Shown here piece by piece: positions 7,873 through 32,033 of a stretch of DNA of 64,000 nucleotides. The stretch is from Prochlorococcus sp. AG-679-M23 (lineage in GTDB: Bacteria; Cyanobacteriota; Cyanobacteriia; PCC-6307; Cyanobiaceae). The position numbers were made by a program, and so were the translations under genes. The stretch is from assembly GCA_003208875.1 (NCBI GenBank), contig QCUR01000003.1:141766-205765 (forward strand), read 5' to 3'. Within the stretch, counting starts at the first letter, position 1; the number at the start of each line of letters is the position of its first letter. The notes under the pieces are model-generated. The model made no database searches. It had not been told where the DNA came from and saw nothing but the letters and a program-made list of their open reading frames with translations.

Positions 7873-8027
7873 ATCAAATTCTTTATATTTTTTTTATATT
7901 CACAGCAAATATAGGCTCAAATATTAACTAAATATTAAATTATTGTTTGAAAGTACAAAGTTGTAACTTATTAGACAATGATTTAACCAAACCATATGCT
8001 TATCTATAGTCAATTCCAAAGCAGGAA

Positions 8028-8264: not shown

Positions 8265-8321
8265 AATCCGACCTTCATAAGTAGGGCTAATTGATTAATA
8301 TTAGAGAATATAAATATCTAA

Positions 8322-16936: not shown

Positions 16937-17561
16937 ATGGGAAAATTCCTTCCTTAATAAGACTCTTTCTAAGCCATGGCAAACTTAAACCCATTACATT
17001 ACTAAAACAACCATCTATCCTTTCGATATATTTACCTCCCTTGCCCTCTAAAGCAAATCCTCCAGCACAATATAAAGGTTCAAGAGAGTCAACATAATTT
17101 TTTATCTCTTCATCTTGCAATTTAGAAAAATATACTTTAGAACTTACTGTTTTTTTAATTTTCTTTGTCACTTTTAGTATTTTTGAACTTGAGTCAAAAG
17201 TACTAAAAAGTAATGTATGTCCCGTATGGAGAAAACCAAATTCTCCAGACATTTGTGACCATCTTCTATATGCCTCTTCTTTATCTGATGGTTTTCCGAA
17301 AGGTCTTCCATTAAATTCGAATATTGAATCACAACCAAGAATTTCTACAGAACTATAATTAAACTTTTCTGGTAAGTCTATTTCTTGGATATTAAGAGCA
17401 ATCCTACTAGCTTTTTGAAAAGACAATTCGAGAGTTAAATTAGATATATCTTTCTCTTTTACTAAATCTTCATCAAAATTACTTGATATTTGAATAAATT
17501 CGATTTGAGAATTTTCTAGTAATTTCTTTCTAGATTGAGAAGCAGAAGCTAGAATTAACAC
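16935..17561 (-). CDS. maf: Maf family nucleoside triphosphate pyrophosphatase
   Basis: [30 protein letters not shown]. Confidence 0.92.
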
Positions 17562-17628
17562 AAATTTTTTTATCTAATTATAATTCAATTTACTTATTAA
17601 TAAATTTCAAGATTAATATAAATTACTA

Positions 17629-19158
17629 ATGGAATTAATAGAAAAACTACAACCTATTAAAAAGCCCTTAATGGTTTTAGGTACATCTAGCGGGGCAGGT
17701 AAATCTTTAACAGTTACGGCCATAGGCAGGATTCTTAAAAATTCAGGAGAAAAACCAATACCTTTTAAAGGCCAAAATATGAGTAACAATGCATGGGTTG
17801 ATTGGAATGGCGGAGAGATGGCATTTTCTCAAGCTTTACAAGCATTTGCTTGCGGGATAATTCCTTCTTCGGAGATGAATCCTATCCTATTAAAACCACA
17901 AGGGAATTCAACTAGTGAAGTCATTCATTTAGGAAGAAGTATGGGTATCACAACAGCAAAAGATTACTACAAAGATTGGTTTTCCTCTGGATGGGAAGTA
18001 ATTAAAGAAAGTTTGAATTCAATATATGAACGACACCCAAATTGTCGTTTAATTATTGAGGGGGCAGGAAGTCCTGTAGAGATGAATTTAATTCACAGAG
18101 ACCTTACGAACTTAAGAGTTGCAAAGTATTTAAATGCGAATTGCATTTTAGTAACTGATATCGAAAGAGGAGGCGTATTTGCTCAAATAATAGGAACTCT
18201 TGAGTTAATGAAACCGGAAGAAAGAAAACTCATTAAAGGTATATTAATAAACAGATTTAGAGGGGACCTTTCATTATTTGAAGAAGGTAAAAAATGGATA
18301 GAAAACAAAACAAAAATCCCTGTTTTAGGAATAATTCCTTGGTTAAATGATAAATTTCCTCCAGAGGATTCTTTAGATTTATTAGAAAAAAAATCATCTG
18401 TAACCAACCCTGAAATAAAGGTTGGAATTATCAAATTGCCATCTATAAGTAACTTTTCAGATTTTGATCCATTAGAAAATGAAGAATCAATATTAATCAA
18501 ATGGGTAATGGAATCTCAAAATTTAAATCAATTTGATTTTCTTATTATTCCTGGAAGTAAACAGACTATTCAAGATCAACAATTTCTTAGAGATTCTGGT
18601 CTATCAAAAGATATAAAAAATTATTCAAAGAATAAAGGTAATATTTTTGGAATTTGCGGAGGTTTACAAATGTTAGGAACAATTCTTGAAGACCCATTTT
18701 TTAAAGAAGGATCAAAAATCAATTTAGAGAAATCAATTAATGGAATTGGATTACTCCCTTTAAAAACAACTTTCCTTCAAAAAAAGATAACAAGGCAAAT
18801 AAATTCTGAGTCAATTTGGCCGCAAGTTACAGAAATCAACGGGTTTGAGATACATAACGGGGTAACTGAATTAGATAATAGTCAAGATACTTTTAAAATA
18901 AAACCTATTTTTAAGGATTTAGATCTTGGTTGGTATAAAGAAAATATTCAAGGAGGGACTATTGCAGGTACATATATTCATGGAATCTTTGAAAATGATT
19001 ACTGGCGAGATCACTATTTAAATTTAATTAGAAAAGGGAAAAACTTACCTTTATTAGACAAGAGAACAAGATCTTATAAAATGAAACGGGAAAACATTAT
19101 TGATAATCTCGCAAATGAATTTAAAAAAAATTTTAATATTTCATCATTGTTAAATTGA
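17629..19158 (+). CDS. cobQ: Cobyric acid synthase
   Basis: GTSSGAGKS, PFKGQNMSNN, MNPILLKP, GICGGLQMLG, GTYIHGIF. Confidence 0.96.
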   Translation: MELIEKLQPIKKPLMVLGTSSGAGKSLTVTAIGRILKNSGEKPIPFKGQNMSNNAWVDWNGGEMAFSQALQAFACGIIPSSEMNPILLKPQGNSTSEVIHLGRSMGITTAKDYYKDWFSSGWEVIKESLNSIYERHPNCRLIIEGAGSPVEMNLIHRDLTNLRVAKYLNANCILVTDIERGGVFAQIIGTLELMKPEERKLIKGILINRFRGDLSLFEEGKKWIENKTKIPVLGIIPWLNDKFPPEDSLDLLEKKSSVTNPEIKVGIIKLPSISNFSDFDPLENEESILIKWVMESQNLNQFDFLIIPGSKQTIQDQQFLRDSGLSKDIKNYSKNKGNIFGICGGLQMLGTILEDPFFKEGSKINLEKSINGIGLLPLKTTFLQKKITRQINSESIWPQVTEINGFEIHNGVTELDNSQDTFKIKPIFKDLDLGWYKENIQGGTIAGTYIHGIFENDYWRDHYLNLIRKGKNLPLLDKRTRSYKMKRENIIDNLANEFKKNFNISSLLN

Positions 19159-19406
19159 AACAATCAAAAATTAAAATTATATGGCCAAATAACATCGAGA
19201 CATATGCCTCAGAAGGAGACGATTGGTTTTCAATTGCTGAAAAGGTAGGTTTTGAAATTCCAACTGGATGTTTAACGGGGAGTTGTGGAGCTTGTGAAAT
19301 AGATGTTAATGGCGAAACGGTGAGAGCTTGTATAAGCAATATTCAAAGTAAAAAAGATTGTTCATTAAGCGTTTCTTTTACTACTGACCCTTTCTGGGAA
19401 AATTAA
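19155..19406 (+). CDS. 2Fe-2S ferredoxin-like protein
   Basis: GCLTGSCGAC...RAC. Confidence 0.88.
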   Translation: MKQSKIKIIWPNNIETYASEGDDWFSIAEKVGFEIPTGCLTGSCGACEIDVNGETVRACISNIQSKKDCSLSVSFTTDPFWEN

Positions 19407-19442
19407 ATTATTTAATTATTGAATTATTTTTATTAAGTACAA

Positions 19443-19456
19443 AAACGGAGAGGGTG
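19443..19456 (-). repeat. att copy 1 (tRNA-Ser 3' end)
   Basis: AAACGGAGAGGGTG identical to 30863-30876. Confidence 0.92.
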
Positions 19457-19522
19457 AATTACATCACACACCATATAGGTAGATATTGGAATACATGGGA
19501 CTCATTTTTGAGTAGTAAAGGC

Positions 19523-19543
19523 ATATCCACCAACATATCCAAG
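19523..19543 (+). repeat. Arm-type-like repeats, left end of cassette A
   Basis: ATATCCACCAAC followed by partial ATATCCAAG; same motif as the cassette C ends. Confidence 0.75.
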
Positions 19544-19607
19544 AAAACATTATTGGTATGAATAAGAATACTTTGGACGATAATGGAAAAAAAAATATTG
19601 AGTTTGC

Positions 19608-19702
19608 AAAAAAAAACCCCTATTTCTAGAGGTTTTTTTCTGGTTTTACTGAATCAAGTGTTTCCTTGTTTCCACTGTTTCAGTGAAACCTCTCCTACAC
19701 AC
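19608..19702 (-). ncRNA. yfr2: Yfr2-family (Cyano-1) small RNA
   Basis: Minus strand reads GTGTGTAGGAGA, then stem GGTTTCACTGAA/TTCAGTAAAACC enclosing tandem GGAAACA-A-GGAAACA; TAATAT -10 upstream; hairpin plus poly-U downstream; ends approximate. Confidence 0.82.
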
Positions 19703-19803
19703 ATACATATATTAGATCATAAAAATTTTTTTCGTGAAGGGGGTGAGTAATATTACTTAATTGTCACATTTACCAGTTTCGGCCTTTAATACTTAATTGC
19801 ATT

Positions 19804-19871
19804 AAAAAACACCCTAATTCTCAAGAATCAGAGCGTTAATATCAGAAATTAGTGTGTGAGGAGTTTCTAAT
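19804..19871 (-). ncRNA. Yfr1/Yfr10-like small RNA
   Basis: Yfr1 signature ACTCCTCACAC (19854-19864, minus) followed by terminator AACGCTCTGATTC-TTGA-GAATTAGGGTGTT-TTTT; ends approximate. Confidence 0.75.
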
Positions 19872-19917
19872 GTTATTAATCTAATAGAAAAGATCTCAAT
19901 TCTGTGTAGTGTTAACA

Positions 19918-20136
19918 CTATTTCTTTTCCCAAAATAGATAAAGATTTGAAAACTGATTTTTAGTATCTACTACTGCAGTGCTTGTTGAGATTAACTTCC
20001 AACCGGCAGAATTACGTTTTCTCATAATTGCTGCAATCTCATTTTCTTGTCTTTGAGTATTTGCATTGCCTACTGCGTAATAGATATCAAGATCATTTTC
20101 TACATATGACATATTTAAATGTGCTGGTTTATTCAA
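19918..20136 (-). CDS. Small hypothetical protein, DUF4177-like
   Basis: AIMRKRNSAGWKLIST resembles the DUF4177 'GWELV' motif. Confidence 0.55.
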   Translation of the reverse strand: MNKPAHLNMSYVENDLDIYYAVGNANTQRQENEIAAIMRKRNSAGWKLISTSTAVVDTKNQFSNLYLFWEKK

Positions 20137-20205
20137 AGTTAATAATACTCAATCTTTCATCGATACTGAAATGGATTCGATAGGGTTATTAGAAATAAGT
20201 ATTGT

Positions 20206-20310
20206 ATGGTTTTACCTTCACCTCAAATTGCAATTGGATTATTGCTTATAAGTATTGGAATCGTAGTCACCTTTGATATCAAAATTGATTTATTTAAAGG
20301 TAAAGAGTAA
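20206..20310 (+). CDS. Putative 34-aa single-TM micro-protein
   Basis: MVLPSPQIAIGLLLISIGIVVTFDIKIDLFKGKE; not in track. Confidence 0.4.
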   Translation: MVLPSPQIAIGLLLISIGIVVTFDIKIDLFKGKE

Positions 20311-20367
20311 AAGACAAAAGTTGGATATCTGGCAAAATGATTATATTAATTTGTTCAAAGAATAATC

Positions 20368-20499
20368 TTGTCAATTAAAGAACGCAATTACGATAATGAT
20401 GGAACAGATCCATCAGAAGAATATTTTAGAAAGAAGAAAAAAGATAATGATGATGATACCTACTTCCCCTTAGAAGAATCAGAACCACCACATTATTAA
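20368..20499 (+). CDS. Putative 43-aa acidic micro-protein
   Basis: TTG start; MSIKERNYDNDGTDPSEEYFRKKKKDNDDDTYFPLEESEPPHY; degenerate second copy at about 20941-21005. Confidence 0.4.
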   Translation: MSIKERNYDNDGTDPSEEYFRKKKKDNDDDTYFPLEESEPPHY

Positions 20500-20558
20500 G
20501 AACAGTAGAAAATTTATTGACAGATTCTTTAAAATTAAAAAAATAAAAAAATTTAAAT

Positions 20559-20963
20559 ATGACTGAACAAAGGAAAATAGAGAAATTTGGAGTCGGGAAT
20601 TTGTATCCTGATATTCATCCACCAGAATTTTCATTCTTTAAAAAAAAATGTATAGATGTAGCAATTGGATATGATGATGGTTTTACTTTCACTCCTAAAT
20701 TTGGGAATTTTAAAGAAACTGAAGATATTTTTGATTACCTAAAACAATATCTTGAAGATAAAGAATTAGAAAAATTAGATATTCGTTTTGATACCTTAAA
20801 AACTTGTATATACCAAATAAATCCTGAGACATTAGAACTTGGAGAATTATTGGAATGTGAAGGAAGTGATGTTAAATATTTTGAATGGAATAAACAAACT
20901 AAAAGTTTTGAAGAGGTTGAATCAAATTCACTAAGTGATGAAGAAGAAGAATATTTTCACTAA
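20559..20963 (+). CDS. Hypothetical acidic protein (cassette A)
   Basis: 134-aa ATG ORF. Confidence 0.7.
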   Translation: MTEQRKIEKFGVGNLYPDIHPPEFSFFKKKCIDVAIGYDDGFTFTPKFGNFKETEDIFDYLKQYLEDKELEKLDIRFDTLKTCIYQINPETLELGELLECEGSDVKYFEWNKQTKSFEEVESNSLSDEEEEYFH

Positions 20964-21021
20964 GTAATGATAATTCATATTTCCCTTCAGAAGAAACAGA
21001 GCAAGTTGAGACATTAATAAA

Positions 21022-21224
21022 ATGAATAAAGAGCATAATTATGAAGAAGGATTATTTAATTACGTTGTTTTGAAGGAAGAAAAGGAAGTGATCTTTTATT
21101 TACATAATCCCTATCCAGATTGCTTAAAAATTCCAGATATAATGAAACAAAGGTTTCCTAGTGATTCAAGAGCATAGTTGTAAATTCTTTGGATGATTTC
21201 AAAAAGTATGGAGCAAAAAGTTGA
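21022..21224 (+). pseudogene. Probable frameshifted small hypothetical gene
   Basis: ORF stops at 21177; a shifted frame near 21165 continues KSIVVNSLDDFKKYGAKS to a TGA overlapping the next TTG start. Confidence 0.5.
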
Positions 21225-21403
21225 GCACTAAATGGGATGACACTTCATGGCAGAAAGAGTTCTTGAATATGAAGGCACATTCGCCTTCAGATGCCAAACT
21301 CTTAATGGGAGGTGTAAAAGGATTGAAAGGTGCTTGGCGTTTAGGTGTTCTGCACGTTGAATACGAAAGACTGAAGAAAGCACAAGAGCAGCAACAACAA
21401 TGA
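21221..21403 (+). CDS. Small hypothetical protein (WxKE..LLxxGxK..G family)
   Basis: 60-aa ORF, coupled to the next ORF by ATGA overlap. Confidence 0.65.
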   Translation: MSTKWDDTSWQKEFLNMKAHSPSDAKLLMGGVKGLKGAWRLGVLHVEYERLKKAQEQQQQ

Positions 21404-21567
21404 AAGAAGAAACAAATTGGAAAAAAGAATTACTAGAAAGTAAGAAGTTCAATAATAAATTTTCAAAAAATATATTAGAAAATGGTGCAAAGAATTATAT
21501 GCAAGAAATCTATATAGGATATATGTATACCCGATGGAGAAAAATTAGAGAGAAATCTATACTATAA
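21400..21567 (+). CDS. Small hypothetical protein, probable paralog of the preceding gene
   Basis: Not in track; MKEETNWKKELLESKKFNNKFSKNILENGAKNYMQEIYIGYMYTRWRKIREKSIL. Confidence 0.6.
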   Translation: MKEETNWKKELLESKKFNNKFSKNILENGAKNYMQEIYIGYMYTRWRKIREKSIL

Positions 21568-21749
21568 GCATTACCATAAGTACCTACCACATCCCAAAAA
21601 GCATTCCACAACATTTTGATGGTGGTTATAGCGTTAATTTCAAAATGAGAATATAAAACTTTAAATCTATATAAAAACAACTATCCTGTATTTACAGGCA
21701 TTTTAAAGGATTAATTGTCACAAAAAAAGGTATAAGGATCTAAAAATAT

Positions 21750-21762
21750 ACGGAGAGGGTGG
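21750..21762 (-). repeat. att copy 2 (tRNA-Ser 3' end)
   Basis: ACGGAGAGGGTGG identical to 30865-30877. Confidence 0.92.
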
Positions 21763-21832
21763 ACATAGAATTCAATCTAGAATTCCAGTGTAGACCTACT
21801 CTGACCACAGTTTAGTTTAGTAATTCATATGA

Positions 21833-21854
21833 AACCTTGAGACAACCTAGAGAC
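21833..21854 (+). repeat. Arm-type-like tandem repeats, left end of cassette B
   Basis: AACCTTGAGAC-AACCTAGAGAC. Confidence 0.78.
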
Positions 21855-22081
21855 ATTTTAGTTTTTATTACTTAATCGATGGATTTAATTTATTGACTAC
21901 AAATATGGGTCTTCATCACATAGTTATTTCAACTGATTTAGAAGCAAAGAGTATAAAAAGAATTTCAACTGAGAATAATAGTGACCATGATGGAATAAGT
22001 TGTTTAATTAATTTTTAAAAGTTAACCAATGAAAATTAATATGGCACAATAAATATGATTTAGGAAATCCAAAAAATTATT

Positions 22082-22432
22082 GTGGATACTGCTGATAAAC
22101 TTTCGATTCTTCAAGAGAGCGTAAACGCTTTCTTCATTAAATTTTTTGATGGAATGTATCCAGAGAGAGTAGACAGAGATCCTGATTTAGTTAAGTTAAA
22201 ACGAATTGGAAATCTCAACCAATTCAATGGAATTGATAAGGATTTCCCTGATTTTGATATTAAAATGGATATCACGAAAGCATTTACTCATATTATTGAA
22301 CACGGTGATGGAATTGAAATGCTTAAGGAAGAAAATGTTCCATTTGAAGATAGTGTTGAAAGATTAGTTTTGGAAGAACTTACAAATACTGAGAATAGAT
22401 ATGGATATGATTTCAATGATGATGTTGAATAA
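22082..22432 (+). CDS. Hypothetical acidic protein (cassette B)
   Basis: 116-aa ORF, GTG start, abuts the next gene. Confidence 0.65.
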   Translation: MDTADKLSILQESVNAFFIKFFDGMYPERVDRDPDLVKLKRIGNLNQFNGIDKDFPDFDIKMDITKAFTHIIEHGDGIEMLKEENVPFEDSVERLVLEELTNTENRYGYDFNDDVE

Positions 22433-22780
22433 ATGAAAAAACTATTTCTTCTAATTTTAATATTTGGTTTTAATACTCCTGTAAATGCAGAACAATATCA
22501 AAGGCACAAATATACTTGCCCAGAATCTCAAAGTGAATGTAATGAAGGAGAAATAGCAGCAATTAAATTAGTAAATGACACTTATTGGGAAATGCTTTCA
22601 GAGAGAATCAAGGAAAATAAACATTATAAGTATCCTTGGTATTGGGTTTACAAAAAGGGGGAGTGTAAATATTCTGTCGCTGCGAAGGAAGATATGCCAA
22701 AGCATACAGTCACTATGGAATGGATTGATGTTGATATTTGCGAAAAAACCACTAAATTGTTGGATCTAAGACGCAGATGA
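22433..22780 (+). CDS. Putative secreted hypothetical protein
   Basis: Signal peptide MKKLFLLILIFGFNTPVNA; four Cys. Confidence 0.7.
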   Translation: MKKLFLLILIFGFNTPVNAEQYQRHKYTCPESQSECNEGEIAAIKLVNDTYWEMLSERIKENKHYKYPWYWVYKKGECKYSVAAKEDMPKHTVTMEWIDVDICEKTTKLLDLRRR

Positions 22781-22860
22781 AAATTAAAAAAAATATTCTC
22801 TCTAAGATTGCTAATCGATCATTATCCCAATTGGGTTCTTTTCTCATTGATTAAGACTAA

Positions 22861-25800
22861 TTAACTTGCAACTAATTCTTCTCCTAGAGTTTCTGCTTGT
22901 TGTAGAACAGTCTCAACTGCAGTAATTTGTTCATCTGGTGGATACTTATATCTCTTCAAAAGTGTTTTGATTTTAAGTCTCAGTTTTGCCCTGACATTTT
23001 CTTTATATTGCCAGTCAATATTTGCATCTCTCCTCATAATTTCTGCAAGTTCTCTTGCCATATTTGCAAGAACTTCTTCTTTCAAAAGTTTATGAGCAGA
23101 TGGGTTGTCTGCTAAAGCATCATAGAAAGATTGTTCTGCAGAAGATAAACCTAATGCAATCCCACGTTCTAAATCTTCTCTGAATTTCTTTGCCATTTCA
23201 ATTAGTTCTTCTATTACTTGTGCTGCTTCTATCGCCCTGTTTTCATATTTTTGCAATGATTTAGAAAGCATTTCACTAAAGTTTTTCTGCTTCACAACAT
23301 TTGTTCTGAACTTACTTTTTACTTCATCATTTATGAGTTTTTGAAGCAATTCAACTGCTAAATTTTTCTGTGGGATCTTACTTACTTCTGATAAGAATTG
23401 ATCTGACATGATACTTATATCTGGATTCTTGAGACCAGCAACTTTGAATACATCAGTTATTCCATCAGAGACTAATGATTCAGATAGAAGTTGTTGTAAT
23501 TCAAACCCATAAGTTTGAGGTGGACGTACAACAATATCTCCTTTTATTAGCATTGCTCTTATTGCTTGAAGGAATGCTATTTCAGGACTATGTTCAAGTG
23601 CTTCATCAGTTGTTCCACAAAGAGCAAATGCTTTCGTTATTTTTAGAACTGTATTGCAGAATCTTTTCTTCCCATCATCTATCTCGAGAATATGGTCAAG
23701 ACAATTTGGAATAATGTCTAATGCTTTTCCTTTCTCTCTAAAGTGACCCCATTCAACAGGATGTAAGAGATCTTCTGCTATTTGAATTTGTTCAAGAAGT
23801 ACACGAACTGCTTCACTGGTATCAAGTTTTATTTCCCCTTTTCCGTTTGCTGCTGTGTAAGTAGCAAGTGCCTCTTTGAGTTGTGGAGCAATACCTATGT
23901 AATCAACAATCAGTCCACCTGGTTTATCCTTGAAAACTCTATTGACTCTTGCAATTGCTTGAGCAAGATTTGCTTCTTTCATTGGTTTATCTACGTACAT
24001 AGTTGCTAAACAAGGTGCATCAAAACCCGTCAACCACATATCTCTTACAAGAACGATTTTGAGTGGATCATTTGGATCTTTGAATCTATTCTCTAAATCT
24101 TTTTTTTGTTGTTTGCTTGTGTGATGAGGTTGAAGAAGTTCCGACTCAGAAGCAGATGCAGTCATGACAACTTTTACAGAACCTTTCATATGATCCGAAT
24201 CTTTCCATGCTGGTTTGAGATCGACTATCTCGTTGTAAAGACGTGCACAGATTTCTCTACTCATTCCAACAATCAATGCTTTTCCAGGTTGCGTTTTAGA
24301 TCTTTGTTCATAGTGGGCAATAAGATCTTTTGCTACTTGTTTGAGTCGAGGTTCTGCTCCTACTAATGCTTCTAATGCTGCCCATCTACTTTTCGCCTTT
24401 TCAGTAGAAGAAATATCATCTTCATTTTCAAAAATTTCATCAAACCTACTATCTAAACTCGGAGTACTGCTTTCTTTGAGTTTTAGTTTTGCTAGTCTTG
24501 ACTCGTAATAAATTGGAACTGTTGCTCCATCATCTACTGCTTGCTGAATATCATAAATAGAAACGTAATGACCAAAGACTGCTTGTGTATCTCGATCATC
24601 TTGAGAAATTGGAGTTCCTGTAAATGCCAAGAAAGTTGCGTTTGGAAGAGCATCCCTCAGTCCTTTTGCTAATCCATATTTCACTTCTCCTGTCTTTGAA
24701 TCAATTCTTCCTTTGAAACCATATTGAGTTCGATGTGCCTCATCACAAATCACCACAATATTTTTTCTATCAGTCAATGCAGGGAATTTTTCTTCGTCCT
24801 TTTCTGTTGCAAATTTTTGAATGGTTGTAAAAATAATTCCTCCACTAGGTCTGTTATCTAATAGATCTCTTAGATCTTTTCTTGACTCTGCTTGCTTAGG
24901 TTTTTCTCCCAATAAATCTCCAGATCCAGTAAAGACACCAAATAACTGACCATCAAGATCTTGCCTATCAGTGACCATTACTAAGGTGGGATTTTGAAGT
25001 CTTTTATCGGTTAGAAGTTTTCCTGCTAAACATGCCATCTCGATACTTTTTCCTGCACCTTGCGTATGCCAAACAACTCCACCTTTGCGATCACCATCTG
25101 GTTTACTTGCCTCTATGACTCTTTCGACTGCAGTATTGACTGCATAGAACTGATGATAAGCAGCAATCTTTTTGATAATTTCTTTTTCTTCTTCAAAGAC
25201 ACAGAATGAACGTATGAAATCTAATAATCTTTTTTTATCGAATAATCCTCTAACTAAGGTTTCTAATTGTTTGAACTTTCCAAGTGGATCTAAATCTTGT
25301 TCTTTTTCAATAACTCTCCATTGCTGGAATCTTTCCTCATTCGCAGAAAGCGATCCTACTTTTGCATAAGTACCATCACTAATAACTAATAGAACATTTG
25401 GAGTAAATAAATCAGGAATATCTACTTTATAAGTTCTTAGTTGATTGAAAGCGTCCCAGATATCAGTTTTTTCATTTGCTGGATTCTTGAGTTCAATTAC
25501 TGCAATTGGGAGACCATTTATATAAACAACAACATCAGGTCTACGATTATTTTTTGGACCACTAATTGCTAATTGATTGACGACTAACCAATCATTTTTA
25601 TCAGGATTATCAAAATCAATAATTCTTAGTCGGATTCCAATTTCTTGGTTACCTTCCATGTAAGAAATAGGAAGTCCTTTGGTCATCCATATGTGAAATT
25701 GACGATTCGAAGCAACTAATCCAGGAATATTTGGATTGGTTATTTGTAGAACTGCTGAATCAATAGTTTTACTAGGAACTTCAGGATTCAATTTTATAAG

Positions 25801-25962
25801 TGCAGACTTCAAACGAACTGTTAGATAAACTTGTCTGAAATCAATTCTTTCAGGAGAGTCTCCATCAGGAGCAATATTTGGACCATAAACATATTGATAT
25901 CCGAGATCTTCAAACCATTCAATTGAAGTTTCTTCTATTAGATTTTCATCTATCAATGACAT
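22861..25962 (-). CDS. hsdR: Type I restriction endonuclease subunit R
   Basis: RPD-x13-ELK nuclease motif, HTQGAGKS Walker A, DEAH, FTGTP, WLTGFD, QAIARVNR. Confidence 0.96.
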   Translation of the reverse strand: MSLIDENLIEETSIEWFEDLGYQYVYGPNIAPDGDSPERIDFRQVYLTVRLKSALIKLNPEVPSKTIDSAVLQITNPNIPGLVASNRQFHIWMTKGLPISYMEGNQEIGIRLRIIDFDNPDKNDWLVVNQLAISGPKNNRRPDVVVYINGLPIAVIELKNPANEKTDIWDAFNQLRTYKVDIPDLFTPNVLLVISDGTYAKVGSLSANEERFQQWRVIEKEQDLDPLGKFKQLETLVRGLFDKKRLLDFIRSFCVFEEEKEIIKKIAAYHQFYAVNTAVERVIEASKPDGDRKGGVVWHTQGAGKSIEMACLAGKLLTDKRLQNPTLVMVTDRQDLDGQLFGVFTGSGDLLGEKPKQAESRKDLRDLLDNRPSGGIIFTTIQKFATEKDEEKFPALTDRKNIVVICDEAHRTQYGFKGRIDSKTGEVKYGLAKGLRDALPNATFLAFTGTPISQDDRDTQAVFGHYVSIYDIQQAVDDGATVPIYYESRLAKLKLKESSTPSLDSRFDEIFENEDDISSTEKAKSRWAALEALVGAEPRLKQVAKDLIAHYEQRSKTQPGKALIVGMSREICARLYNEIVDLKPAWKDSDHMKGSVKVVMTASASESELLQPHHTSKQQKKDLENRFKDPNDPLKIVLVRDMWLTGFDAPCLATMYVDKPMKEANLAQAIARVNRVFKDKPGGLIVDYIGIAPQLKEALATYTAANGKGEIKLDTSEAVRVLLEQIQIAEDLLHPVEWGHFREKGKALDIIPNCLDHILEIDDGKKRFCNTVLKITKAFALCGTTDEALEHSPEIAFLQAIRAMLIKGDIVVRPPQTYGFELQQLLSESLVSDGITDVFKVAGLKNPDISIMSDQFLSEVSKIPQKNLAVELLQKLINDEVKSKFRTNVVKQKNFSEMLSKSLQKYENRAIEAAQVIEELIEMAKKFREDLERGIALGLSSAEQSFYDALADNPSAHKLLKEEVLANMARELAEIMRRDANIDWQYKENVRAKLRLKIKTLLKRYKYPPDEQITAVETVLQQAETLGEELVAS

Positions 25963-27275
25963 TAGATACCAACCTCATCAATCATTCTTTCTGCATCAGA
26001 AATTATGAGTTCTCCCGAAACTAGTCTTGGAAGCAATGTATCTCTAAGTTCTTCTAGCAACATATTAGAAACTATATTCGAAGTTCTTTTTTTGAATAAT
26101 AATAAGGCAATTTTTTCGTAGCGTTCGCATATTTTATTAGGAGGCACAATAATCTTTAATTTTCTACAATCTTCTCTTCTTAGAAATCCTCTTGCACTTC
26201 CAGAAACCCATGAAGTAATTTCTTTGACCTTATTACTAAAGGAATAGTAAGTAAACATTTGGTCAATACTATTATTTTTTGATCTAATTCTCCACATATT
26301 TTGATTTAGTAAAGATGGAACAATATCACTTGAAACCAAACCTATTTTGCCTAAAGTTGCCCCAACCATTACAAATAACGTATCACCTTCAAGTAATTCA
26401 AATTTTCTAAATTCATCAAATTTATCTTTCTCAATAAAGACAGCATCCTTTTTATTGATAAAAGAATCTTCTCCAATGTTTAGTGTTCTAACTATAAAAG
26501 ATCCTTTTGTAGTGTAATCCTTACTTTTGAAAGCATATCCGCCACTCAAATCTGCAATTTCATCTAATTCTTTTACTTGCCATCCTTTTGGAATCTCTCC
26601 TAATTCAGAATCTTCAAATGAATCTGGAAATAAATTACTAATCTCGTCAGGTAATCCAGTTGAGAGACCTTCTACTTTTGCTTTTACAGGATCAAAATCT
26701 ATAAACCAAGATTTGAAAAGTGCTTTTGCTATTTCTTCAAGAGTTTCATTAGTTTTTTGATTGATTTCAATTTTTTTATCAAGGGTTCCAATGATATGTG
26801 CAATTGCTTTTTGTTCATGGAGAGGAGGATATTCAAATTCAAATCTTCCTAAAACCTTTGCATTTGCTCCTGCTTGTGCAGAACCAGTTTTTGAACCCCT
26901 TACGAAATTCCACCATGAGGAACTTCTCATACATCGCCATACATATGAAGGATCCACAATTTGTTTATTTACGCGAAATCTTATGAGGTAAGAAGCAAAA
27001 ACCACAAAAGATTCTCCTTGAAATAAATAATTTTCTCCAGTACTATTTCCTGTTCTCGCAACAACAATATCTCCATCGTTCAAAAGATATTTTGATTTTG
27101 AGGATGAATCTATTTCGCAGAATGGAACATCTCTCCATTGCACAAAACCATTTTGAATATCTGTAATTCTTAGGAATTTTGTGCCAGTATTTTCATCTGT
27201 TGCACTTGCTGTAAAACCATACTCGATTTTTTCTGAGACGTCAGCAAGTGAAGTTTTTTTCCAATTACTATTCAT
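25962..27275 (-). CDS. hsdS: Type I RM specificity subunit S
   Basis: Two TRDs; PPLHEQKAIA, ELGEIPKGW and LRDTLLPRLVSGE conserved regions; overlaps hsdM and hsdR. Confidence 0.94.
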   Translation of the reverse strand: MNSNWKKTSLADVSEKIEYGFTASATDENTGTKFLRITDIQNGFVQWRDVPFCEIDSSSKSKYLLNDGDIVVARTGNSTGENYLFQGESFVVFASYLIRFRVNKQIVDPSYVWRCMRSSSWWNFVRGSKTGSAQAGANAKVLGRFEFEYPPLHEQKAIAHIIGTLDKKIEINQKTNETLEEIAKALFKSWFIDFDPVKAKVEGLSTGLPDEISNLFPDSFEDSELGEIPKGWQVKELDEIADLSGGYAFKSKDYTTKGSFIVRTLNIGEDSFINKKDAVFIEKDKFDEFRKFELLEGDTLFVMVGATLGKIGLVSSDIVPSLLNQNMWRIRSKNNSIDQMFTYYSFSNKVKEITSWVSGSARGFLRREDCRKLKIIVPPNKICERYEKIALLLFKKRTSNIVSNMLLEELRDTLLPRLVSGELIISDAERMIDEVGI

Positions 27276-28842
27276 ATCCTATACGATTCAAATTCTCAGC
27301 AATTTTTTGATCTAATTTTGCTCCCTCTTCCTGTTGTGTTTTGAGTAAAGAGGTAAGTCTTTTCATCTTTTCATCAAAAGGTTCACCATCATCCTCTTCT
27401 TCTGGAGCACCAACATATCGTCCAGGAGTTAGAGCAAAACTATTCTTTTCAATCTCTTCAAACTTTGCGTTGTAGCAGAAACCTGCAACGTCCTCATACT
27501 CATCATCTTTACGCCAAGATTGGACAGTATCTGCAATCTTAGAAATATCTCCATCAGTGAGAATTCTCTCAACTCGATTTTTCATTGTTCCCATTTGGCG
27601 AGCATCAATGAATAAAGTTTCTCCTTTTCTATCTCTACCTCTTTGAGTTTTATCGTTAGTCAAAAACCATAAACAAACTGGAATTTGGGTATTCAAAAAT
27701 AATTGCCCAGGCAATGCAACCATAACTTCAACCACATCTTTTTTGACCATCTCTTCTCGAATATTCCCCTCATTACTTGTATTAGAACTCATAGATCCAT
27801 TTGCAAGAACTACTCCTGCTTGACCACCTGGTCTCAACTTCCAAAGCATATGTTGTAACCATGCATAGTTAGCATTTCCTGCTGGTGGTCTTCCATATGC
27901 CCAGCGAACATCACTTTCATATTTTTCCCCACCCCAATCAGAAATATTGAAGGGTGGATTAGCGAGTATGTAATCAAATTTTTGATCAAGATGCTGATCT
28001 CTTGCAAAAGTATCTGCAGGTTCTTGTCCTAAATCGGCAGAAAAACCCCTAATTGCAAGGTTTATTGCTGCTAATCGCCAAGTAGTAGGATTACTTTCTT
28101 GACCATAAATTGAAATAGCATCTCTTTCTCCTCCATGTGCTTCTATAAATCTTTCACTTTGAACAAACATTCCACCTGATCCACAACATGGATCATAAAC
28201 TCGACCTTTATCAGGAGATAAAACTGCAACTAATGTTTTTACAACGTGAGAAGGAGTATAGAATTGTCCTCCTTTTTTTCCTTCAGCACTTGCAAATTGA
28301 CCCAAAAAGTATTCAAAAACTTCACCTAAAACATCTCCCGAATTTTCTTGCTCAGTGAAACCAACGGTTGAAAAAAGATCTATTAGTTGTCCTAATATTC
28401 CAAATTCTAATTGAGCAGTACTAAATCTTTTATCTAACTTTCCCCTTAGGTCTGAGTTTTCATTCTCAATCGAAACCAATGCTTTATCAATACGCTGACC
28501 AATATCAGGTTGTTTTGCTTGATTTCTAAGTTCTTCCCATCGGGCATCTTTTGGAACCCAAAACACATTTGCTTGAGTGTAATAATCTCTATCTTCTAAT
28601 GCCTCTTGATGATCTTTAGGATCATCTCCAAGAAAATAATCTGAGTCTGGGGTGCTAACTATTTCTAATACTTTTTTCTGATGTTCAACAAAGGTATCCG
28701 AAACAAATTTTAGAAATATCAATGGAAGAACAAGATTCTTATATTCAGCAGCATCCATTTGAGCACGTAATTTATCTGCACTTGCCCAAAGAACTGCTTT
28801 GAAATCTTTTGGAGTATCTTCTTTCTTTTTAGGAATGACCAA
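27268..28842 (-). CDS. hsdM: Type I RM methyltransferase subunit M (m6A)
   Basis: LWASADKLR, GQFYTP, YDPCCGSGG, NPPF, LTPGRYVG. Confidence 0.96.
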   Translation of the reverse strand: MVIPKKKEDTPKDFKAVLWASADKLRAQMDAAEYKNLVLPLIFLKFVSDTFVEHQKKVLEIVSTPDSDYFLGDDPKDHQEALEDRDYYTQANVFWVPKDARWEELRNQAKQPDIGQRIDKALVSIENENSDLRGKLDKRFSTAQLEFGILGQLIDLFSTVGFTEQENSGDVLGEVFEYFLGQFASAEGKKGGQFYTPSHVVKTLVAVLSPDKGRVYDPCCGSGGMFVQSERFIEAHGGERDAISIYGQESNPTTWRLAAINLAIRGFSADLGQEPADTFARDQHLDQKFDYILANPPFNISDWGGEKYESDVRWAYGRPPAGNANYAWLQHMLWKLRPGGQAGVVLANGSMSSNTSNEGNIREEMVKKDVVEVMVALPGQLFLNTQIPVCLWFLTNDKTQRGRDRKGETLFIDARQMGTMKNRVERILTDGDISKIADTVQSWRKDDEYEDVAGFCYNAKFEEIEKNSFALTPGRYVGAPEEEDDGEPFDEKMKRLTSLLKTQQEEGAKLDQKIAENLNRIGYE

Positions 28843-28954
28843 TAAAAAATAATTGCTCTTATTTTATACCTAATTGCTATTTTGTTTGATTCAATGCTTA
28901 CTTTCTGACATGCGATTTGTTATTTTTTTAATTAGTTAAAGAGCGAATAAAATC

Positions 28955-29149
28955 ATGATTACTAATAAGAGATACCAAACGTTATTAATGCTTGCGACAA
29001 CAGGCAAACCTTTAAATAAAGACGCTACAGAAGAAGAAAAGAAATTCTACGAAGAATGTAAACATGACTATAAAGTCATGAAAGAAACCGCAAAGAAAAA
29101 GGGCATAAAGAATCCAATTTTAGAAATACCAATGGAAGTTGATTTTTAG
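28955..29149 (+). CDS. Small hypothetical protein (cassette B)
   Basis: 64-aa ATG ORF divergent from hsdM. Confidence 0.6.
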   Translation: MITNKRYQTLLMLATTGKPLNKDATEEEKKFYEECKHDYKVMKETAKKKGIKNPILEIPMEVDF

Positions 29150-29348
29150 AGAAATAATGCAACCACCAAAGACCTCTGAAGAATTAACAGAAATGTATCC
29201 CGATCTAGAACCTTGGCAAAGGGATGAACTAGAAATTTGGCACAGAGGATGGATTACTAAATTAATGACTGGAGATGCAACATCAAAAGAATATAATGCT
29301 GCAATACCTCCTCATCCAGATCCTCATCACCCTGAAGATGATGAGTAA
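29139..29348 (+). CDS. Small hypothetical protein (cassette B)
   Basis: 69-aa track ORF (an ATG at 29157 is an alternative start); Pro/His-rich C-terminus. Confidence 0.55.
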   Translation: MIFREIMQPPKTSEELTEMYPDLEPWQRDELEIWHRGWITKLMTGDATSKEYNAAIPPHPDPHHPEDDE

Positions 29349-29381
29349 AATAAGGTTTGAAAATTATTTGTATCTCTAAAA

Positions 29382-29425
29382 AACCTAGAGACTTTAAAAA
29401 AATAACCCTGAGACAACATAGAGAC
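29382..29425 (+). repeat. Arm-type-like repeats, right end of cassette B
   Basis: AACCTAGAGAC (29382), AACCCTGAGAC (29404), AACATAGAGAC (29415). Confidence 0.78.
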
Positions 29426-29549
29426 AAGAGTGGTCATTGTGGTAACTTATAAAAGTCAAACGGGTTAAAGAATACCTAAAACAACTCAGTCATAACAGTG
29501 AATCTGGACATTCTGACCAATTCTGACTACATCTTATTTGTATAAAAAT

Positions 29550-29561
29550 ACGGAGAGGGTG
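29550..29561 (-). repeat. att copy 3 (tRNA-Ser 3' end)
   Basis: ACGGAGAGGGTG identical to 30865-30876. Confidence 0.92.
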
Positions 29562-29629
29562 AAATTCACTTTCGTGTTTTAACGGCAGATACAGGAACAT
29601 CTGGGATGGTTAAAGGGATGTAGAGGCAA

Positions 29630-29653
29630 ATATCCACCAACACATCCACCAAC
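29630..29653 (+). repeat. Arm-type-like tandem repeats, left end of cassette C
   Basis: ATATCCACCAAC-ACATCCACCAAC. Confidence 0.8.
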
Positions 29654-29764
29654 ACCAAAAACTTGCCTATATTGGACGATATTGGATTGATAAATCTGTA
29701 TATAAATTACAATTTTATATATATTTTTTTCTAGGGATATAATTATCAAAATATTTAATAAAAA

Positions 29765-30652
29765 ATGAAAACACTCTATTCATTTTTAGTTTCATTATTA
29801 GTAATACCTTTTTCAACAACTATAGGACTAGGGTCTTTATATTTTTATAGTGAACTTGCAATTTTCACTAGAGAAGCAAAAGCAACAAACTGGAATGCAT
29901 TTAATCTAAATTTTAAAAAAGGGTTGAGATATCTTGATAAGGGTGAATATCAAAAGGCACTTGATGCTTACAACAGAGTAATTAAAATTTATGCACTTGA
30001 TGGACCTAGTTTCTACAACAGAGGCACAGCATATTTAGGATTAGGAAAATACAATGAGGCAATTAAAGACTTTTTAAAATCAATTAAATACGATAATGAG
30101 AAAGGCAACCAATATGCTTATAACAATATTGCAGTCGCATACGATAATCTTGGAGATTACAAAAATGCCCTTAAATATATCAACTTAGCAATAGATGCGT
30201 ACCCTAAATTTGGACTTTATTTTCACAATCGTGCTTACTATAATTTGGAGTTAGAAAATTTCAAAGATGCAGAAAAAGATTATGCGAAAGCAAAAGAAGT
30301 TTACTTAAAATATAAAAGTACAAGAATGATTGGAGATTGTCCAAAAGTTAAGAATCTAGAGCATTGCAAACTAGATTCTTGGTTCTATAACGATTTAGGT
30401 TATGCAAAAGAGAGTTTAGGAGATTTTAGAGGAGCATTGGTTAATTACGATAAAGCAATAGAAATAAATTATCCAAATCCAAATGAAGAAAAATTTATCA
30501 TATTCAATAATCGGGGAAATACAAGATATGAATTAGGTGATGAGAAGGGTGCTTGTAAAGATTACAAGTTTGCTGCATCAATAGGTGACGCGGAAGGAGT
30601 TGAGTGGTTGAAATCAAAGGATGGTAAATGGTGCGGAGAAATGGAATTTTAA
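29765..30652 (+). CDS. Tetratricopeptide repeat protein with hydrophobic N-terminus
   Basis: Repeated YNRG..Y..LG.Y..A..D...AI TPR units. Confidence 0.9.
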   Translation: MKTLYSFLVSLLVIPFSTTIGLGSLYFYSELAIFTREAKATNWNAFNLNFKKGLRYLDKGEYQKALDAYNRVIKIYALDGPSFYNRGTAYLGLGKYNEAIKDFLKSIKYDNEKGNQYAYNNIAVAYDNLGDYKNALKYINLAIDAYPKFGLYFHNRAYYNLELENFKDAEKDYAKAKEVYLKYKSTRMIGDCPKVKNLEHCKLDSWFYNDLGYAKESLGDFRGALVNYDKAIEINYPNPNEEKFIIFNNRGNTRYELGDEKGACKDYKFAASIGDAEGVEWLKSKDGKWCGEMEF

Positions 30653-30666
30653 AACATAAAAAGATT

Positions 30667-30754
30667 TATCCACCAACACATACTTTCTCCATCAAATATC
30701 CACCAACACATCAAAAAATATCCACCAACATATCCACCAACATATCCACCAACA
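30667..30754 (+). repeat. Five TATCCACCAACA direct repeats, right end of cassette C
   Basis: Copies at 30667, 30697, 30719, 30731 and 30743. Confidence 0.9.
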
Positions 30755-30865
30755 CATTTATGCATATACTGGTAAATGTTGGATTATATAGGACAAACAA
30801 CTTCTCTAAAATCCCATTTTGACCGCATTTTTGCCAACATAGCACTTCACAGGATGATAATTAAA

Positions 30866-30950
30866 CGGAGAGGGTGGGATTCGAACCCACGAATAGTTAC
30901 CTATTAAACGATTTCGAATCGTTCGCTTTCGACCACTCAGCCACCTCTCC
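30866..30950 (-). tRNA. tRNA-Ser(CGA)
   Basis: GGAGAGGTGGCTGAGTGGTCGAAAGC..., anticodon arm AACGA-TTCGAAA-TCGTT, long variable arm, GGTTCGAATCCC, discriminator G. Confidence 0.96.
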
Positions 30951-31001
30951 GTAATTAAATAATATATAAAATTTATAAATTCGTTTTTTTTATCTTATTT
31001 A

Positions 31002-32033
31002 TTAATTCCAACCCGCTTCTTTCATCATTTTGATTGCGAGAGAATTATTTTCACCTAACTCATCTACCGTGACTTTATCAGAAGTAAACTCCCCAAAGTT
31101 TTTGACTATTTCATTTTGATTAACTTCATTTAAAGGATGTTCAAAAGTAGGTGCGGCTAAACCCTTACTTCCTTCTGGTGAGGCTAAAAATTCAAGCAAT
31201 TTTATAGCTTCAGACTTGTTAGTAGCATATCTAGCAACACCTCCAGCACTAATGTTTACGTGTGCAGGATTGGGTGTAATAACAGACGTTTTTTTTGCAT
31301 ATAAAGAATCTCTTCTTCCATTAACACCGGCAAGCATTCTTGCAACATAGTAGTGATTGACAATCCCGACACCACATTTTTTCTTGGAAACTGCTCTTAC
31401 TATTGCAATATCACCTGGGAAGAAAGGTTTAGAAACATTAGAAATCATTCCACTTAACCAAGCTTTAGTTTCAGTCTCACCTTTATTAACTATTTGATTA
31501 GCTACCAGAGATTGGTTGTAAGGACTTTTTCTATTTCTTAAACATACTTTCCCTTTTAAAGAGGGATCAGCTAGATCCGAATAGTCCCTTATTTTATTAA
31601 CATCCACAACTTTTGGATTAGCAACCATGACCCTAACTCTTCTAGTTAGCGCATACCATTCCCTACCTGGATCTTTTAAACCATCTGGAACATCGTTCTC
31701 TAAATTTGATGAGTCAATTCTTTGCAGCAAACCTGCTTTTGCAGCATTAGTTATTCTTGCTGCATCAACAAGCAAAATCACATCTGCTTGAGAATTTTTT
31801 CCTTCTCTTTTTAATCTTTCAATTAAAGATATCCCGGCAGCTTCAATAAGTCTTACTTTTATCCCAGTTTCTTCCGCAAATTTCTTATAAACTCCTCTAT
31901 CGGTATTGTAATGTCTTCCTGAATAAACTTTCACTTCTTTTTCAGTTGAGTTAACAGGTATATTTGTATTAAATAAGAAAGTAAGGGTCAAAGCTGAATA
32001 AAAAAGTCTTTTTAGTTTTTGCACTTTTATCAA
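31002..32033 (-). CDS. futA: Fe(III) ABC transporter substrate-binding protein FutA/IdiA
   Basis: VYSGRHYNTD, YNQSLVA, VNHYYVARM, HVNISAGG. Confidence 0.93.
   Translation of the reverse strand: MIKVQKLKRLFYSALTLTFLFNTNIPVNSTEKEVKVYSGRHYNTDRGVYKKFAEETGIKVRLIEAAGISLIERLKREGKNSQADVILLVDAARITNAAKAGLLQRIDSSNLENDVPDGLKDPGREWYALTRRVRVMVANPKVVDVNKIRDYSDLADPSLKGKVCLRNRKSPYNQSLVANQIVNKGETETKAWLSGMISNVSKPFFPGDIAIVRAVSKKKCGVGIVNHYYVARMLAGVNGRRDSLYAKKTSVITPNPAHVNISAGGVARYATNKSEAIKLLEFLASPEGSKGLAAPTFEHPLNEVNQNEIVKNFGEFTSDKVTVDELGENNSLAIKMMKEAGWN

Follow-up and report, generated by a model that had tools for sequence, protein, structure and literature searches.

The island described here lies within 64,000 nt of the genome of Prochlorococcus sp. 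AG-679-M23 (contig QCUR01000003.1, positions 141,766 to 205,765 of the forward strand; this whole stretch is referred to as the window) and is a row of three intervals, A, B, and C, bounded by short copies of the 3' end of a tRNA-Ser(CGA) gene. Its left flank is conserved and consists of psbD, psbC, maf, cobQ, and a gene for a small 2Fe-2S ferredoxin, and so is its right flank, which consists of the tRNA-Ser(CGA) gene, genes for an iron-type solute-binding protein and a 2-oxoglutarate (2OG) oxygenase, and glyQ. ARAGORN places the tRNA-Ser(cga) gene at 30865–30951 on the minus strand, in agreement with Rfam, and the plus-strand 12-mer ACGGAGAGGGTG is the complement of its last 11 bases plus one further base. 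Exact copies of this 12-mer, which we call the core, are found at 19445, 21750, 29550, and 30865, all on the plus strand, with spacings of 2305 (A), 7800 (B), and 1315 bases (C). A preliminary description of this DNA, made from its letters alone, had reported these four positions, their direct orientation, and the spacings, all of which are confirmed; its account of the contents, with small RNAs (sRNAs) and small open reading frames (ORFs) in A, a type I restriction-modification (R-M) system in B, and a TPR protein in C, agrees with Rfam and Pfam. In the following, L labels denote loci of relatives and G labels genomes (G000 is this genome; L020 is from G074, L016 from G044, and L040 from G152:C6), F labels denote families of repeats, and the stretches to the right of a core and to the left of the next are termed P'-like and P-like arms, respectively. 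The features of the island are as follows.

19445–19456 (+): core copy 1 (distal), exact 12-mer, 38 bases past the stop of the ferredoxin-like gene (19155–19406)
19457–19551 (+): left arm of cassette A (P'-like, type F1), with ATATCCACCAACATATCCAAG as its end; can be aligned to the arm following core 3 and to F1 arms from relatives
19637–19704 (−): Cyano-1 RNA (Rfam RF01701, 70.1 bits)
19794–19871 (−): Yfr10 sRNA (Rfam RF02362, 68.3 bits)
20559–21567 (+): small ORFs of cassette A (134, 51, 60, and 55 aa), without families other than the two PHROG matches given next (ORF list, Pfam, PHROGs)
21221–21403 and 21400–21567 (+): paralogous micro-ORFs of 60 and 55 aa, matching phrog_16908 and phrog_869 (no known function)
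21575–21749 (+): degenerate right end of cassette A, which by eye seems like the GTACCACAT (F8) arms of L025 and L026 and unlike F1
21750–21761 (+): core copy 2, exact 12-mer
21762–21860 (+): F2-type P'-like arm of cassette B, with TAGAATTC repeats near the core and then AACCTTGAGACAACCTAGAGACA at 21833–21855
22082–22780 (+): two ORFs of 116 and 115 aa with no assigned function (ORF list; no usable family match)
22861–25962 (−): hsdR, type I restriction subunit, 1033 aa (Pfam HSDR_N, SWI2_SNF2, T1R_D3-like, T1RH-like_C)
25962–27275 (−): hsdS, specificity subunit, 437 aa (Pfam Methylase_S, two stretches)
27268–28842 (−): hsdM, methylase subunit, 524 aa (Pfam HsdM_N, N6_Mtase)
28949–29549 (+): conserved right module of cassette B, consisting of the small ORFs 28955–29149 and 29139–29348 and the F2 P-like arm; present in L016 and L020 at 91% identity
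29550–29561 (+): core copy 3, exact 12-mer
29562–29660 (+): left arm of cassette C (P'-like, type F1), in which ATCCACCAACAC is present twice (29631–29654); 93.9% identical to L015 4993–5106
29765–30652 (+): TPR-repeat protein, 295 aa, the cargo of cassette C (Pfam TPR_1/2/8)
30660–30864 (+): F1-type P-like arm of cassette C, with five ATCCACCAACA repeats (30670–30758), ACTGGTAAATGTTGGATTATATAGGAC, and about 70 more bases to the core
30865–30951 (−): tRNA-Ser(CGA) (ARAGORN, Rfam), the proximal core being 30865–30876 on the plus strand

Permitting one mismatch gave no additional match to ACGGAGAGGGTG in the window, where the chance expectation is 0.03 and four matches were reached in none of 100 shuffles. 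Across both strands of the whole 1,645,990-base assembly the 12-mer occurs at the four island places only, and the reversed control pattern does not occur at all. The preliminary description had considered that the 12-mer might be common elsewhere in the genome, which is not so, and a chance origin of the repeats is ruled out by the genome-wide count and the shuffles. The sequence shared between the copies stops at the 12-mer and the flanks differ immediately; among relatives the shared core is often the 11 bases CGGAGAGGGTG, the tRNA's own last 11 nt. Among the 38 tRNA genes and the single tmRNA gene of this genome, extra copies of the last 12 nt were found for three: there are three extra 3'-end copies for tRNA-Ser(cga) and one for tRNA-Pro(tgg), and for tRNA-Thr(ggt) the gene itself is duplicated.

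The same core recurs throughout the genus. In a set of 285 genomes, one per species, the 12-mer is present in 186, and 57 of these carry two to four copies according to our own count of the result table, with the reversed control pattern giving zero or one match per genome. Multiple copies lie, in the places listed, on one strand of one contig and 97 bases to 7.5 kb apart, being split over contigs in a few draft genomes. The loci of 20 relatives, 18 with multiple copies and two with a single copy, were fetched for comparison.

What distinguishes the intervals between cores is the sequence of their ends. Starting from each core, some 65–100 bases to its right, there are two or three tandem repeats of 11–12 bp, and the same motif is found again in two to five copies about 100–200 bases to the left of the next core. 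The motif of cassette C is ATCCACCAACA(C/T); the pattern CCACCAACA[CT]AT occurs seven times in the genome, always on the plus strand and only in the island (once near the left end of A, once in the left arm of C, and five times in its right arm). Cassette B has the motif ACCYTGAGACA/ACMTAGAGACA, and GAGACAACMTAGAGACA occurs twice genome-wide, once near each end of B, whose F2 P-like arm carries the motifs ACCTAGAGAC, ACCCTGAGACA, and ACATAGAGACA at about 29380–29426 and whose F2 P'-like arm is 93–96% identical in L016 and L020. A second set of short repeats lies close to the core, TAGAATTC in B and ..TGGAC..AGGAC in the F1 arms. Repeats that flank a short core on both sides are the layout of an attP with arm-type sites, as in the lambda-type tyrosine integrases, and a circularized B or C would, judging from its sequence, place its repeats on both sides of the core. 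Their distances from the core in B and C are like those of arm sites.

To interrogate the matching of ends, all cassettes of at least 450 bp in the window and 18 multi-core loci were compared (n = 24; the 97- and 375-bp intervals were dropped). At least three 9-mers that are not AT-rich are common to the two ends of the same cassette in 15 of the 24; shuffled end pairings gave a mean of 3.4 and a maximum of nine matched cassettes, and 15 was reached in none of 5000. Eight F1 P'-like and eight F1 P-like arms align with long conserved blocks, the flanking core genes of the same genomes being 72–80% identical to the window. Across the 20 loci, the occurrence of one motif at both ends of a cassette tends to hold, with the motif varying among cassettes, and at least nine arm families can be told apart by eye (e.g., CCCGCCAACA, ACCCTAACAC, CCCCACACTAC, TATCACAAACA, and GTACCACAT). 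The F2 motif is rare (four of the 285 genomes); the species-genome collection has 33 stretches with the F1 double repeat, spread over 24 contigs, all except one with Prochlorococcus titles.

Cassette B encodes a type I R-M system in which hsdR, hsdS, and hsdM show the domains expected of such a system and form one operon, overlapping or abutting on the minus strand. Its 115-aa ORF recurs in cassettes of L016 (83% amino acid identity) and L024 (87%); for both ORFs of 22082–22780, those at 28955–29149 and 29139–29348, and the 133-aa ORFs beside F4 arms, Pfam, PHROGs, and the ESM Atlas gave no usable family. The cargo of relatives' cassettes comprises several restriction-modification or restriction-like systems, many TPR proteins, and a DnaB_C-like ATPase, and further sulfotransferases, polysaccharide lyases, 2OG oxygenases, MORN proteins, an HNH nuclease, and proteins without assignment. 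In L018, L021, L022, and L091, cassettes with F1 arms encode the DnaB_C-like ATPase (307–319 aa) next to TPR proteins, a pairing that may represent a replication module or a defense pair. A cassette at 7674–11198 of L015 combines a gene for an AlpA-type excisionase with one for a 1103-aa Mrr_cat_2 nuclease-helicase-HTH protein, likely a defense gene, which ends 15 bases before the tRNA core.

Cassette A is of a different kind. It has a good F1 arm on its left and at its right end a degenerate arm that resembles the GTACCACAT type, and the two ends have no 9-mer in common. Its contents are widespread in relatives, namely the Cyano-1/Yfr10 block, a small ORF ending in ...EESEPPHY, and the micro-ORF stretch of 21182–21550, which 8 of the 20 loci fetched from relatives retain. 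The first exact core of most relatives comes to the right of the sRNA block, and no intact core precedes the block; a core with its arm immediately in front of it is kept only by the window, L012, and L024, whereas L017, L020, and L009 show weaker traces of one. Our reading is that A may be an old, near-fixed composite of cassettes with decayed inner sites, of which the left att site survives here; this fits a history of accretion and decay and not a presently excisable unit. The division into three discrete cassettes proposed in the preliminary description thus holds for B and C with their matched ends but not for A, with its mismatched ends and conserved resident block.

Comparison with relatives revealed both gain or loss of cassettes at the core and exchange of cargo between conserved ends. 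The locus L020 is 93.8% identical to the window across 17000–21548 and then continues with an F1 P arm (92.5% identical to 30744–30876 of the window), a core, a B-type cassette, and a core leading directly into the tRNA. The ends of this cassette match those of B in the window (95.6% over the first 113 bases and 91.5% over the last 650), cassette C is absent, and the junction between B and the tRNA lies exactly at the 12-mer. To the left of the B-type cassette there is an F1 P arm instead of the sequence found in the window, so that B-type units have different neighbors in the two genomes. A B-type cassette also lies directly at the tRNA in L016, with ends of 93.4% and 91.3% identity, the tRNA-side flank being 76% identical. 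Gain or loss of a single cassette exactly at the core, for which the preliminary description had proposed a comparison of genomes, is seen as B without C in G074.

B-type ends, 91–96% identical, enclose three different R-M systems in the three genomes: besides the type I system of the window, L020 has a type I system with proteins 31–34% identical to those of the window, together with a YgjP-like gene, and L016 an N6_N4 methylase with a ResIII helicase-nuclease. Conversely, the hsdR and hsdM of the window recur in L018 at 86–87% amino acid identity, with hsdS there at only 40%. The R-M operon together with the small ORFs of 28955–29348 is found at 10527–16385 of L018 (84–86% nucleotide identity), where its orientation to the cores is reversed and the arms around it are of the CCCCACACTAC family, which indicates that the operon also moves independently of the att arms. 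For cassette C, the core, left arm, and TPR gene are 87.9% identical at the nucleotide level in L113, against 78–79% in the flanks; over both cassettes, the arms of B and C are 88–96% identical, against 72–80% for neighboring core genes. In L113 the core between the TPR unit and a MORN-protein unit has been lost and the two units are fused. At 11030–11075 of that locus a fragment of a P' arm (CCACCAACAC...CTTGCAGATACTGGACGAT) without a core follows the TPR gene, and is itself followed by the MORN-protein gene and an F1 P arm, which looks like two cassettes joined by recombination between arm repeats.

The preliminary description had noted no tyrosine or serine recombinase in the window, and six-frame profile searches of the whole genome with PF00589 (tyrosine) and PF00239 (serine) at E ≤ 0.01 likewise gave no match on the window's contig and none among the island ORFs. 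In this genome the PF00589 matches are restricted to contigs C4 and C6 and comprise a 386-aa integrase and a 189-aa integrase fragment near a contig end, and the sole PF00239 match, a small serine recombinase of the core genome, is on C2; the Ser(cga)-specific integrase that might have been encoded elsewhere in the genome was not found by these searches. The cassette proteins tested were 56 ORFs of at least 100 aa and 53 stop-free frames of 55–109 aa from 18 loci, and 21 ORFs from ten further multi-core loci (drawn from 19 of the 24 F1 contigs, the other five being omitted as likely duplicates of loci already read). None of these 130 ORFs and frames from 28 multi-core loci is a tyrosine or serine recombinase, whole or fragmentary, according to Pfam. 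One frame is an AlpA-type excisionase (L015:7674–7919, E = 4.6e-20), and excisionases of this type are the usual partners of tyrosine integrases. An apparent serine recombinase at the tRNA of L015 was rejected, as its HTH-like C-terminus is the end of the 1103-aa Mrr_cat_2-helicase-HTH protein in Pfam.

Recombinases encoded in the core genome were surveyed in genomes with a completeness of 90% or more. Across 93 of these an integrase-like frame of some 389 aa is near-universal, the 386–389-aa integrase being present in 91 of 92 good genomes. In this genome the 386-aa integrase lies between hemH and cobO with no tRNA close by; in complete genomes the core integrase is 0.6–1.0 Mb from tRNA-Ser(cga) by coordinate difference. 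Against PDB sequences it shows a weak XerA-like match across the catalytic domain only (E = 0.02). Among the matches listed for 18 genomes, the PF00589 match nearest to a core on the same contig is 61 kb away. Of 92 good genomes, 88 encode a small serine recombinase (about 225 aa) that is likewise core and lies 0.3–0.4 Mb from tRNA-Ser(cga). The only recombinase seen at the site itself in the loci read is a 197-aa serine recombinase of resolvase type (PF00239, E = 5.8e-25) in G152, encoded by a 2.6-kb element directly at tRNA-Ser(cga) (L040, about 6824–9390 of the locus). This element also encodes a thiamine-binding protein and a T5orf172/GIY-YIG protein. There is one mismatch in its distal core, and an F1 P'-like arm is found at the far end with no matching P arm at the tRNA end.

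Beyond the genus genomes, searches of viral contigs with the core plus AAATT gave nine matches, all inside long phage ORFs and with neither a tRNA nor a further core, which we take as chance, and the F1 double repeat gave none in the same contigs. The natural P-core-P' junction of L015 (7200–7620) had no blastn match in phage records. The F2 17-mer had 50 matches in metagenome contigs, none with a core and most not AT-rich, which were also taken as chance. Contigs from four marine metagenome runs, belonging to four studies, span the interior of cassette C with zero to four differences per 227–700 bases. The joints listed from these contigs have short sides (20–77 bases) and mostly no known intervening sequence (e.g., 19343>30865, 20499>30668, 21110>30864, 21837>29462, and 29348>20387); their probable source is relatives in which the locus is arranged differently. 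When contig depths are summed, the values are high over 19000–21465 and 30508–31300, lower over B, and lowest in C, but they cannot rank the parts and were not used.

The boundaries, the matched arms, the presence or absence of cassettes at the core, the uncoupling of arms from cargo, and the lack of a recombinase gene are observations. On these grounds we consider it likely that the island grew by accretion, as an array of small integrative cassettes that site-specific recombination placed at the final 11–12 bases of tRNA-Ser(CGA); these would be moved in trans, be similar to cis-mobilizable elements (CIMEs), and be related to the tycheposons of the genus (Hackl et al., bioRxiv 10.1101/2020.12.28.424599). 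It is well supported by their sequences that B, with its type I R-M system, and C, with its TPR protein, are discrete integrative units without an integrase, and both look intact. The cassettes would belong to a genus-wide pool whose cargo is mostly restriction-modification and other defense genes, TPR proteins, and assorted enzymes. Each would follow the plan core, P'-like arm, cargo, P-like arm, core, with its own repeat family in both arms, so that circularization would rebuild an attP-like site. A cassette would enter as a circle, its P-core-P' site recombining with a core copy, either that of the tRNA or an internal one, and the insertion would leave the tRNA intact and push older units outward. 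Cassettes might also be excised singly or in combination by integrases acting in trans, as the preliminary description suggested. The enzyme would most likely be a tyrosine integrase with arm binding, supplied by an unseen helper element or by the host as its core integrase; a tyrosine integrase seems likelier than a serine recombinase because of the arm layout, the AlpA-type gene, and the absence of dyad symmetry in the core. The differing arm families would imply either several helper integrases absent from the assemblies or one enzyme with adaptor proteins. That the cassettes are still mobile is a possibility which we put somewhat short of an even chance.

Several points weigh against this interpretation. 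No helper element that pairs these arms with a recombinase was found in the genus, in viral contigs, in phage records, or in metagenome contigs, and no excision joint or circle junction at the cores was seen in the contigs of the four marine metagenome runs, although contigs cannot show rare forms. One host enzyme serving all arms would need either a loose specificity or adaptor proteins fitted to each family, and no such proteins were identified with Pfam, PHROGs, or the ESM Atlas. Matched ends were not seen in 9 of the 24 cassettes, A included, indicating that decay and fusion are common. The repeats could also be sites other than arms, for example iterons; some F1 cassettes hold the DnaB_C-like helicase. 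Finally, the identity with the tRNA covers only 11–12 bases, compared with about 51 at tRNA-Pro and about 40 nt in the available text of the tycheposon preprint, which makes the proposed recombination chemistry tentative.

The array might instead consist of inert scars, left by integrase-bearing tycheposons that inserted serially and then lost their integrases; variation between strains would be due to deletion and homologous recombination, and nothing would move now. We regard this as rather unlikely, although it agrees with the unmatched ends of nine cassettes, the two-cassette fusion across a lost core in L113, the loss of the core left of the sRNA block in most relatives, and the absence of any sign of activity in the metagenome contigs; the preprint, in the text available, also describes tandem elements parted by partial tRNAs and remnants with fragmented integrases (10.1101/2020.12.28.424599). 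Simple decay, however, should have left some integrases or fragments among the 130 ORFs and frames of the 28 multi-core loci, where there are none, and, among the matches listed for 18 genomes, PF00589 comes no closer to the site than 61 kb. The conservation of the B and C arms above that of neighboring core genes (88–96% vs. 72–80%) and the enclosure of different cargo by the same type of arms likewise tell against inert remnants. It is distinctly unlikely, in our estimation, that the 3' end of tRNA-Ser(CGA) is a capture site serviced by the host, at which a core recombinase inserts and excises a free pool of integrase-less cassettes. The candidate enzymes would then be the 386–389-aa tyrosine integrase or, with less likelihood, the small serine recombinase of the core genome; recruitment would occur through the arm repeats of each family, either by direct contact with the enzyme or by way of small adaptor proteins.

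A serine-recombinase system, in which the cassettes are moved either by the core enzyme (about 225 aa) or by one encoded on an element, as in G152, and the repeats act as accessory res-like sites, appears very doubtful. The 197-aa recombinase of G152 does belong to an element that sits right at tRNA-Ser(cga) and has an F1 P'-like arm, the core enzyme occurs in 88 of the 92 good genomes, and "SSR" is among the tycheposon gene labels in a figure legend in the available part of the preprint (10.1101/2020.12.28.424599). However, no recombinase other than the G152 enzyme was seen at the site in the loci read, and the G152 element has no matching P arm; this genome is devoid of an element-borne small serine recombinase, the 12-mer shows no dyad symmetry by eye, and both the arm layout, as known from other systems, and the AlpA-type excisionase point to a tyrosine integrase. 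We find it scarcely credible that the locus is a replacement island, where the 12-mer and repeats are intergenic signals, such as terminators or regulatory sites, and the content is swapped by homologous recombination without any site-specific recombinase. Arm repeats do appear to have driven fusion and deletion in L113, and the same R-M operon is inverted between other arms in L018, but the 12-mer is the tRNA's own 3' end and is found nowhere else in the genome, and junctions with unrelated sequence on either side lie exactly at it. The presence of family-specific repeats at both cassette ends beyond chance would be explained by a split attP and not by terminators.

The accretion array we favor can be compared with several known systems. 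The tycheposon preprint names, in its available text, seven island tRNAs (Pro-tgg, Ser-tga, Ala-ggc, Thr-ggt, Arg-tct, Met-cat, and tmRNA), att sites of about 40 nt, and remnants that include scattered partial tRNAs (10.1101/2020.12.28.424599). As far as this text goes, the cassettes share with tycheposons the genus, insertion at a tRNA 3' end, tandem stacking with the newest unit next to the tRNA, and cargo for defense and niche adaptation; some relatives' cassettes also carry a DnaB-like helicase, an excisionase, or a small serine recombinase, types that are among the preprint's labels. They differ in that they encode no integrase, the tycheposon-defining gene, which codes for a tyrosine recombinase or, rarely, a large serine recombinase, in that tRNA-Ser(cga) is not among the seven tRNAs and the shared stretch is 11–12 nt, and in the family-specific arm repeats at both ends, of which there is no mention in the text available. 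No replication or packaging hallmark genes of tycheposons (helicase, primase, terS, and MCP) were found with Pfam in the cassettes of the window. The tycheposon link drawn in the preliminary description is consequently upheld for the tandem stacking of tRNA ends but not for the tRNA, the repeat length, or the integrase.

The nearest formal category, judged from the nucleotides of the island, appears to be the CIME, a cis-mobilizable element that has lost its integration and transfer genes and kept attL and attR (ICEberg 2.0, PMC6323972, in the part available). Exact cores flank both B and C, and each has arm repeats that match between its two ends, making these ends candidates for attL and attR; A shows no such match. 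Like the CIMEs of streptococci, which occur with integrative and conjugative elements (ICEs), the cassettes are devoid of integration and transfer genes, lie in tandem at one site, and may be expected, from the available account, to rely on the recombinase of another element. Unlike them, they have no cognate autonomous element (ICE, or integrative and mobilizable element) that could be found in the genus, viral contigs, or phage records, they display many arm families at one core, and they are far smaller (0.6–7.8 kb). This organism is not known to conjugate.

Integrons and the integrative elements that use host Xer recombinases (IMEX) serve as functional analogies only. An integron has intI and attI beside its array, one-way cassettes, a common promoter, and folded attC sites. 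The present array resembles it in the rows of small units of one to few genes, each with its own recombination site, which are swapped at one site. It has a tRNA gene as anchor, no adjacent intI, and no attC-type site (boundaries judged by reading only), and the genes of B are on the minus and those of C on the plus strand with signals of their own, hence no common promoter; the integron-like platform envisaged in the preliminary description is a loose fit at best. IMEX, such as the CTX/TLC arrays at dif of Vibrio cholerae, resemble the cassettes in having no integrase of their own, in forming tandem arrays, and in using a host tyrosine recombinase, which would match the servicing of the site by the host; the target here is the tRNA-Ser 3' end and not dif, and nothing links the core 386-aa integrase to the site. 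We found no account in the literature searched of integrase-less cassettes or of a tRNA-Ser(cga) island in Prochlorococcus, though the tycheposon supplements may list further tRNAs or elements.

Three other tRNA genes of this genome should be mentioned. The partial copy of tRNA-Pro(tgg), about 51 nt long and 2.2 kb downstream (G000:C3:117522–119822, outside the window), is a classical long att-type repeat in contrast to the 12-nt core of tRNA-Ser(cga), and the ends of its interval have no 9-mer in common. Two tRNA-Thr(ggt) genes lie 4.5 kb apart (G000:C1:357149–357220 and 361660–361732), and the interval between them may be another element, as Thr(ggt) is among the published island tRNAs in the available text. 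A tRNA-Arg(tct) gene, likewise a published island tRNA there, is found at 60491–60566 (+) of the window, 3.4 kb from the contig end, so the assembly breaks in that island. Elsewhere in the window, Rfam matches to IsrR, the antisense RNA of isiA, occur at 15924–16107 (−, 157 bits) and 38946–39114 (+, 54 bits); the former sits within psbC (CP43) and is probably due to the coding similarity of CP43 and IsiA rather than to a real IsrR.

What appears to be new here, going by sequence comparison, is a system of cassettes, CIME-like and related to tycheposons, whose tRNA is unlisted, whose core is very short, and whose arms differ from family to family. Very small cassettes keep an elaborate and well-conserved architecture of recombination sites without a recombinase, at a tRNA that is not listed in the available text of the published screen; since that screen, according to the same text, sought integrases and partial tRNAs, integrase-less units with 11–12 tRNA bases would probably escape it. 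If the cassettes are inert, they still record the uptake of many different elements at this site. If they are mobilized in trans, they would provide a route for the rapid exchange of anti-phage restriction systems among co-occurring cells, and, with defined attP-like and attB sites, a tractable system for finding the enzyme. Should the site be serviced by the host, it would constitute an integron-like platform that shuffles R-M and accessory genes with no need of an element-borne integrase, which would explain the movement of island genes outside "functional elements"; the locus makes the movement of such non-element island genes directly testable.

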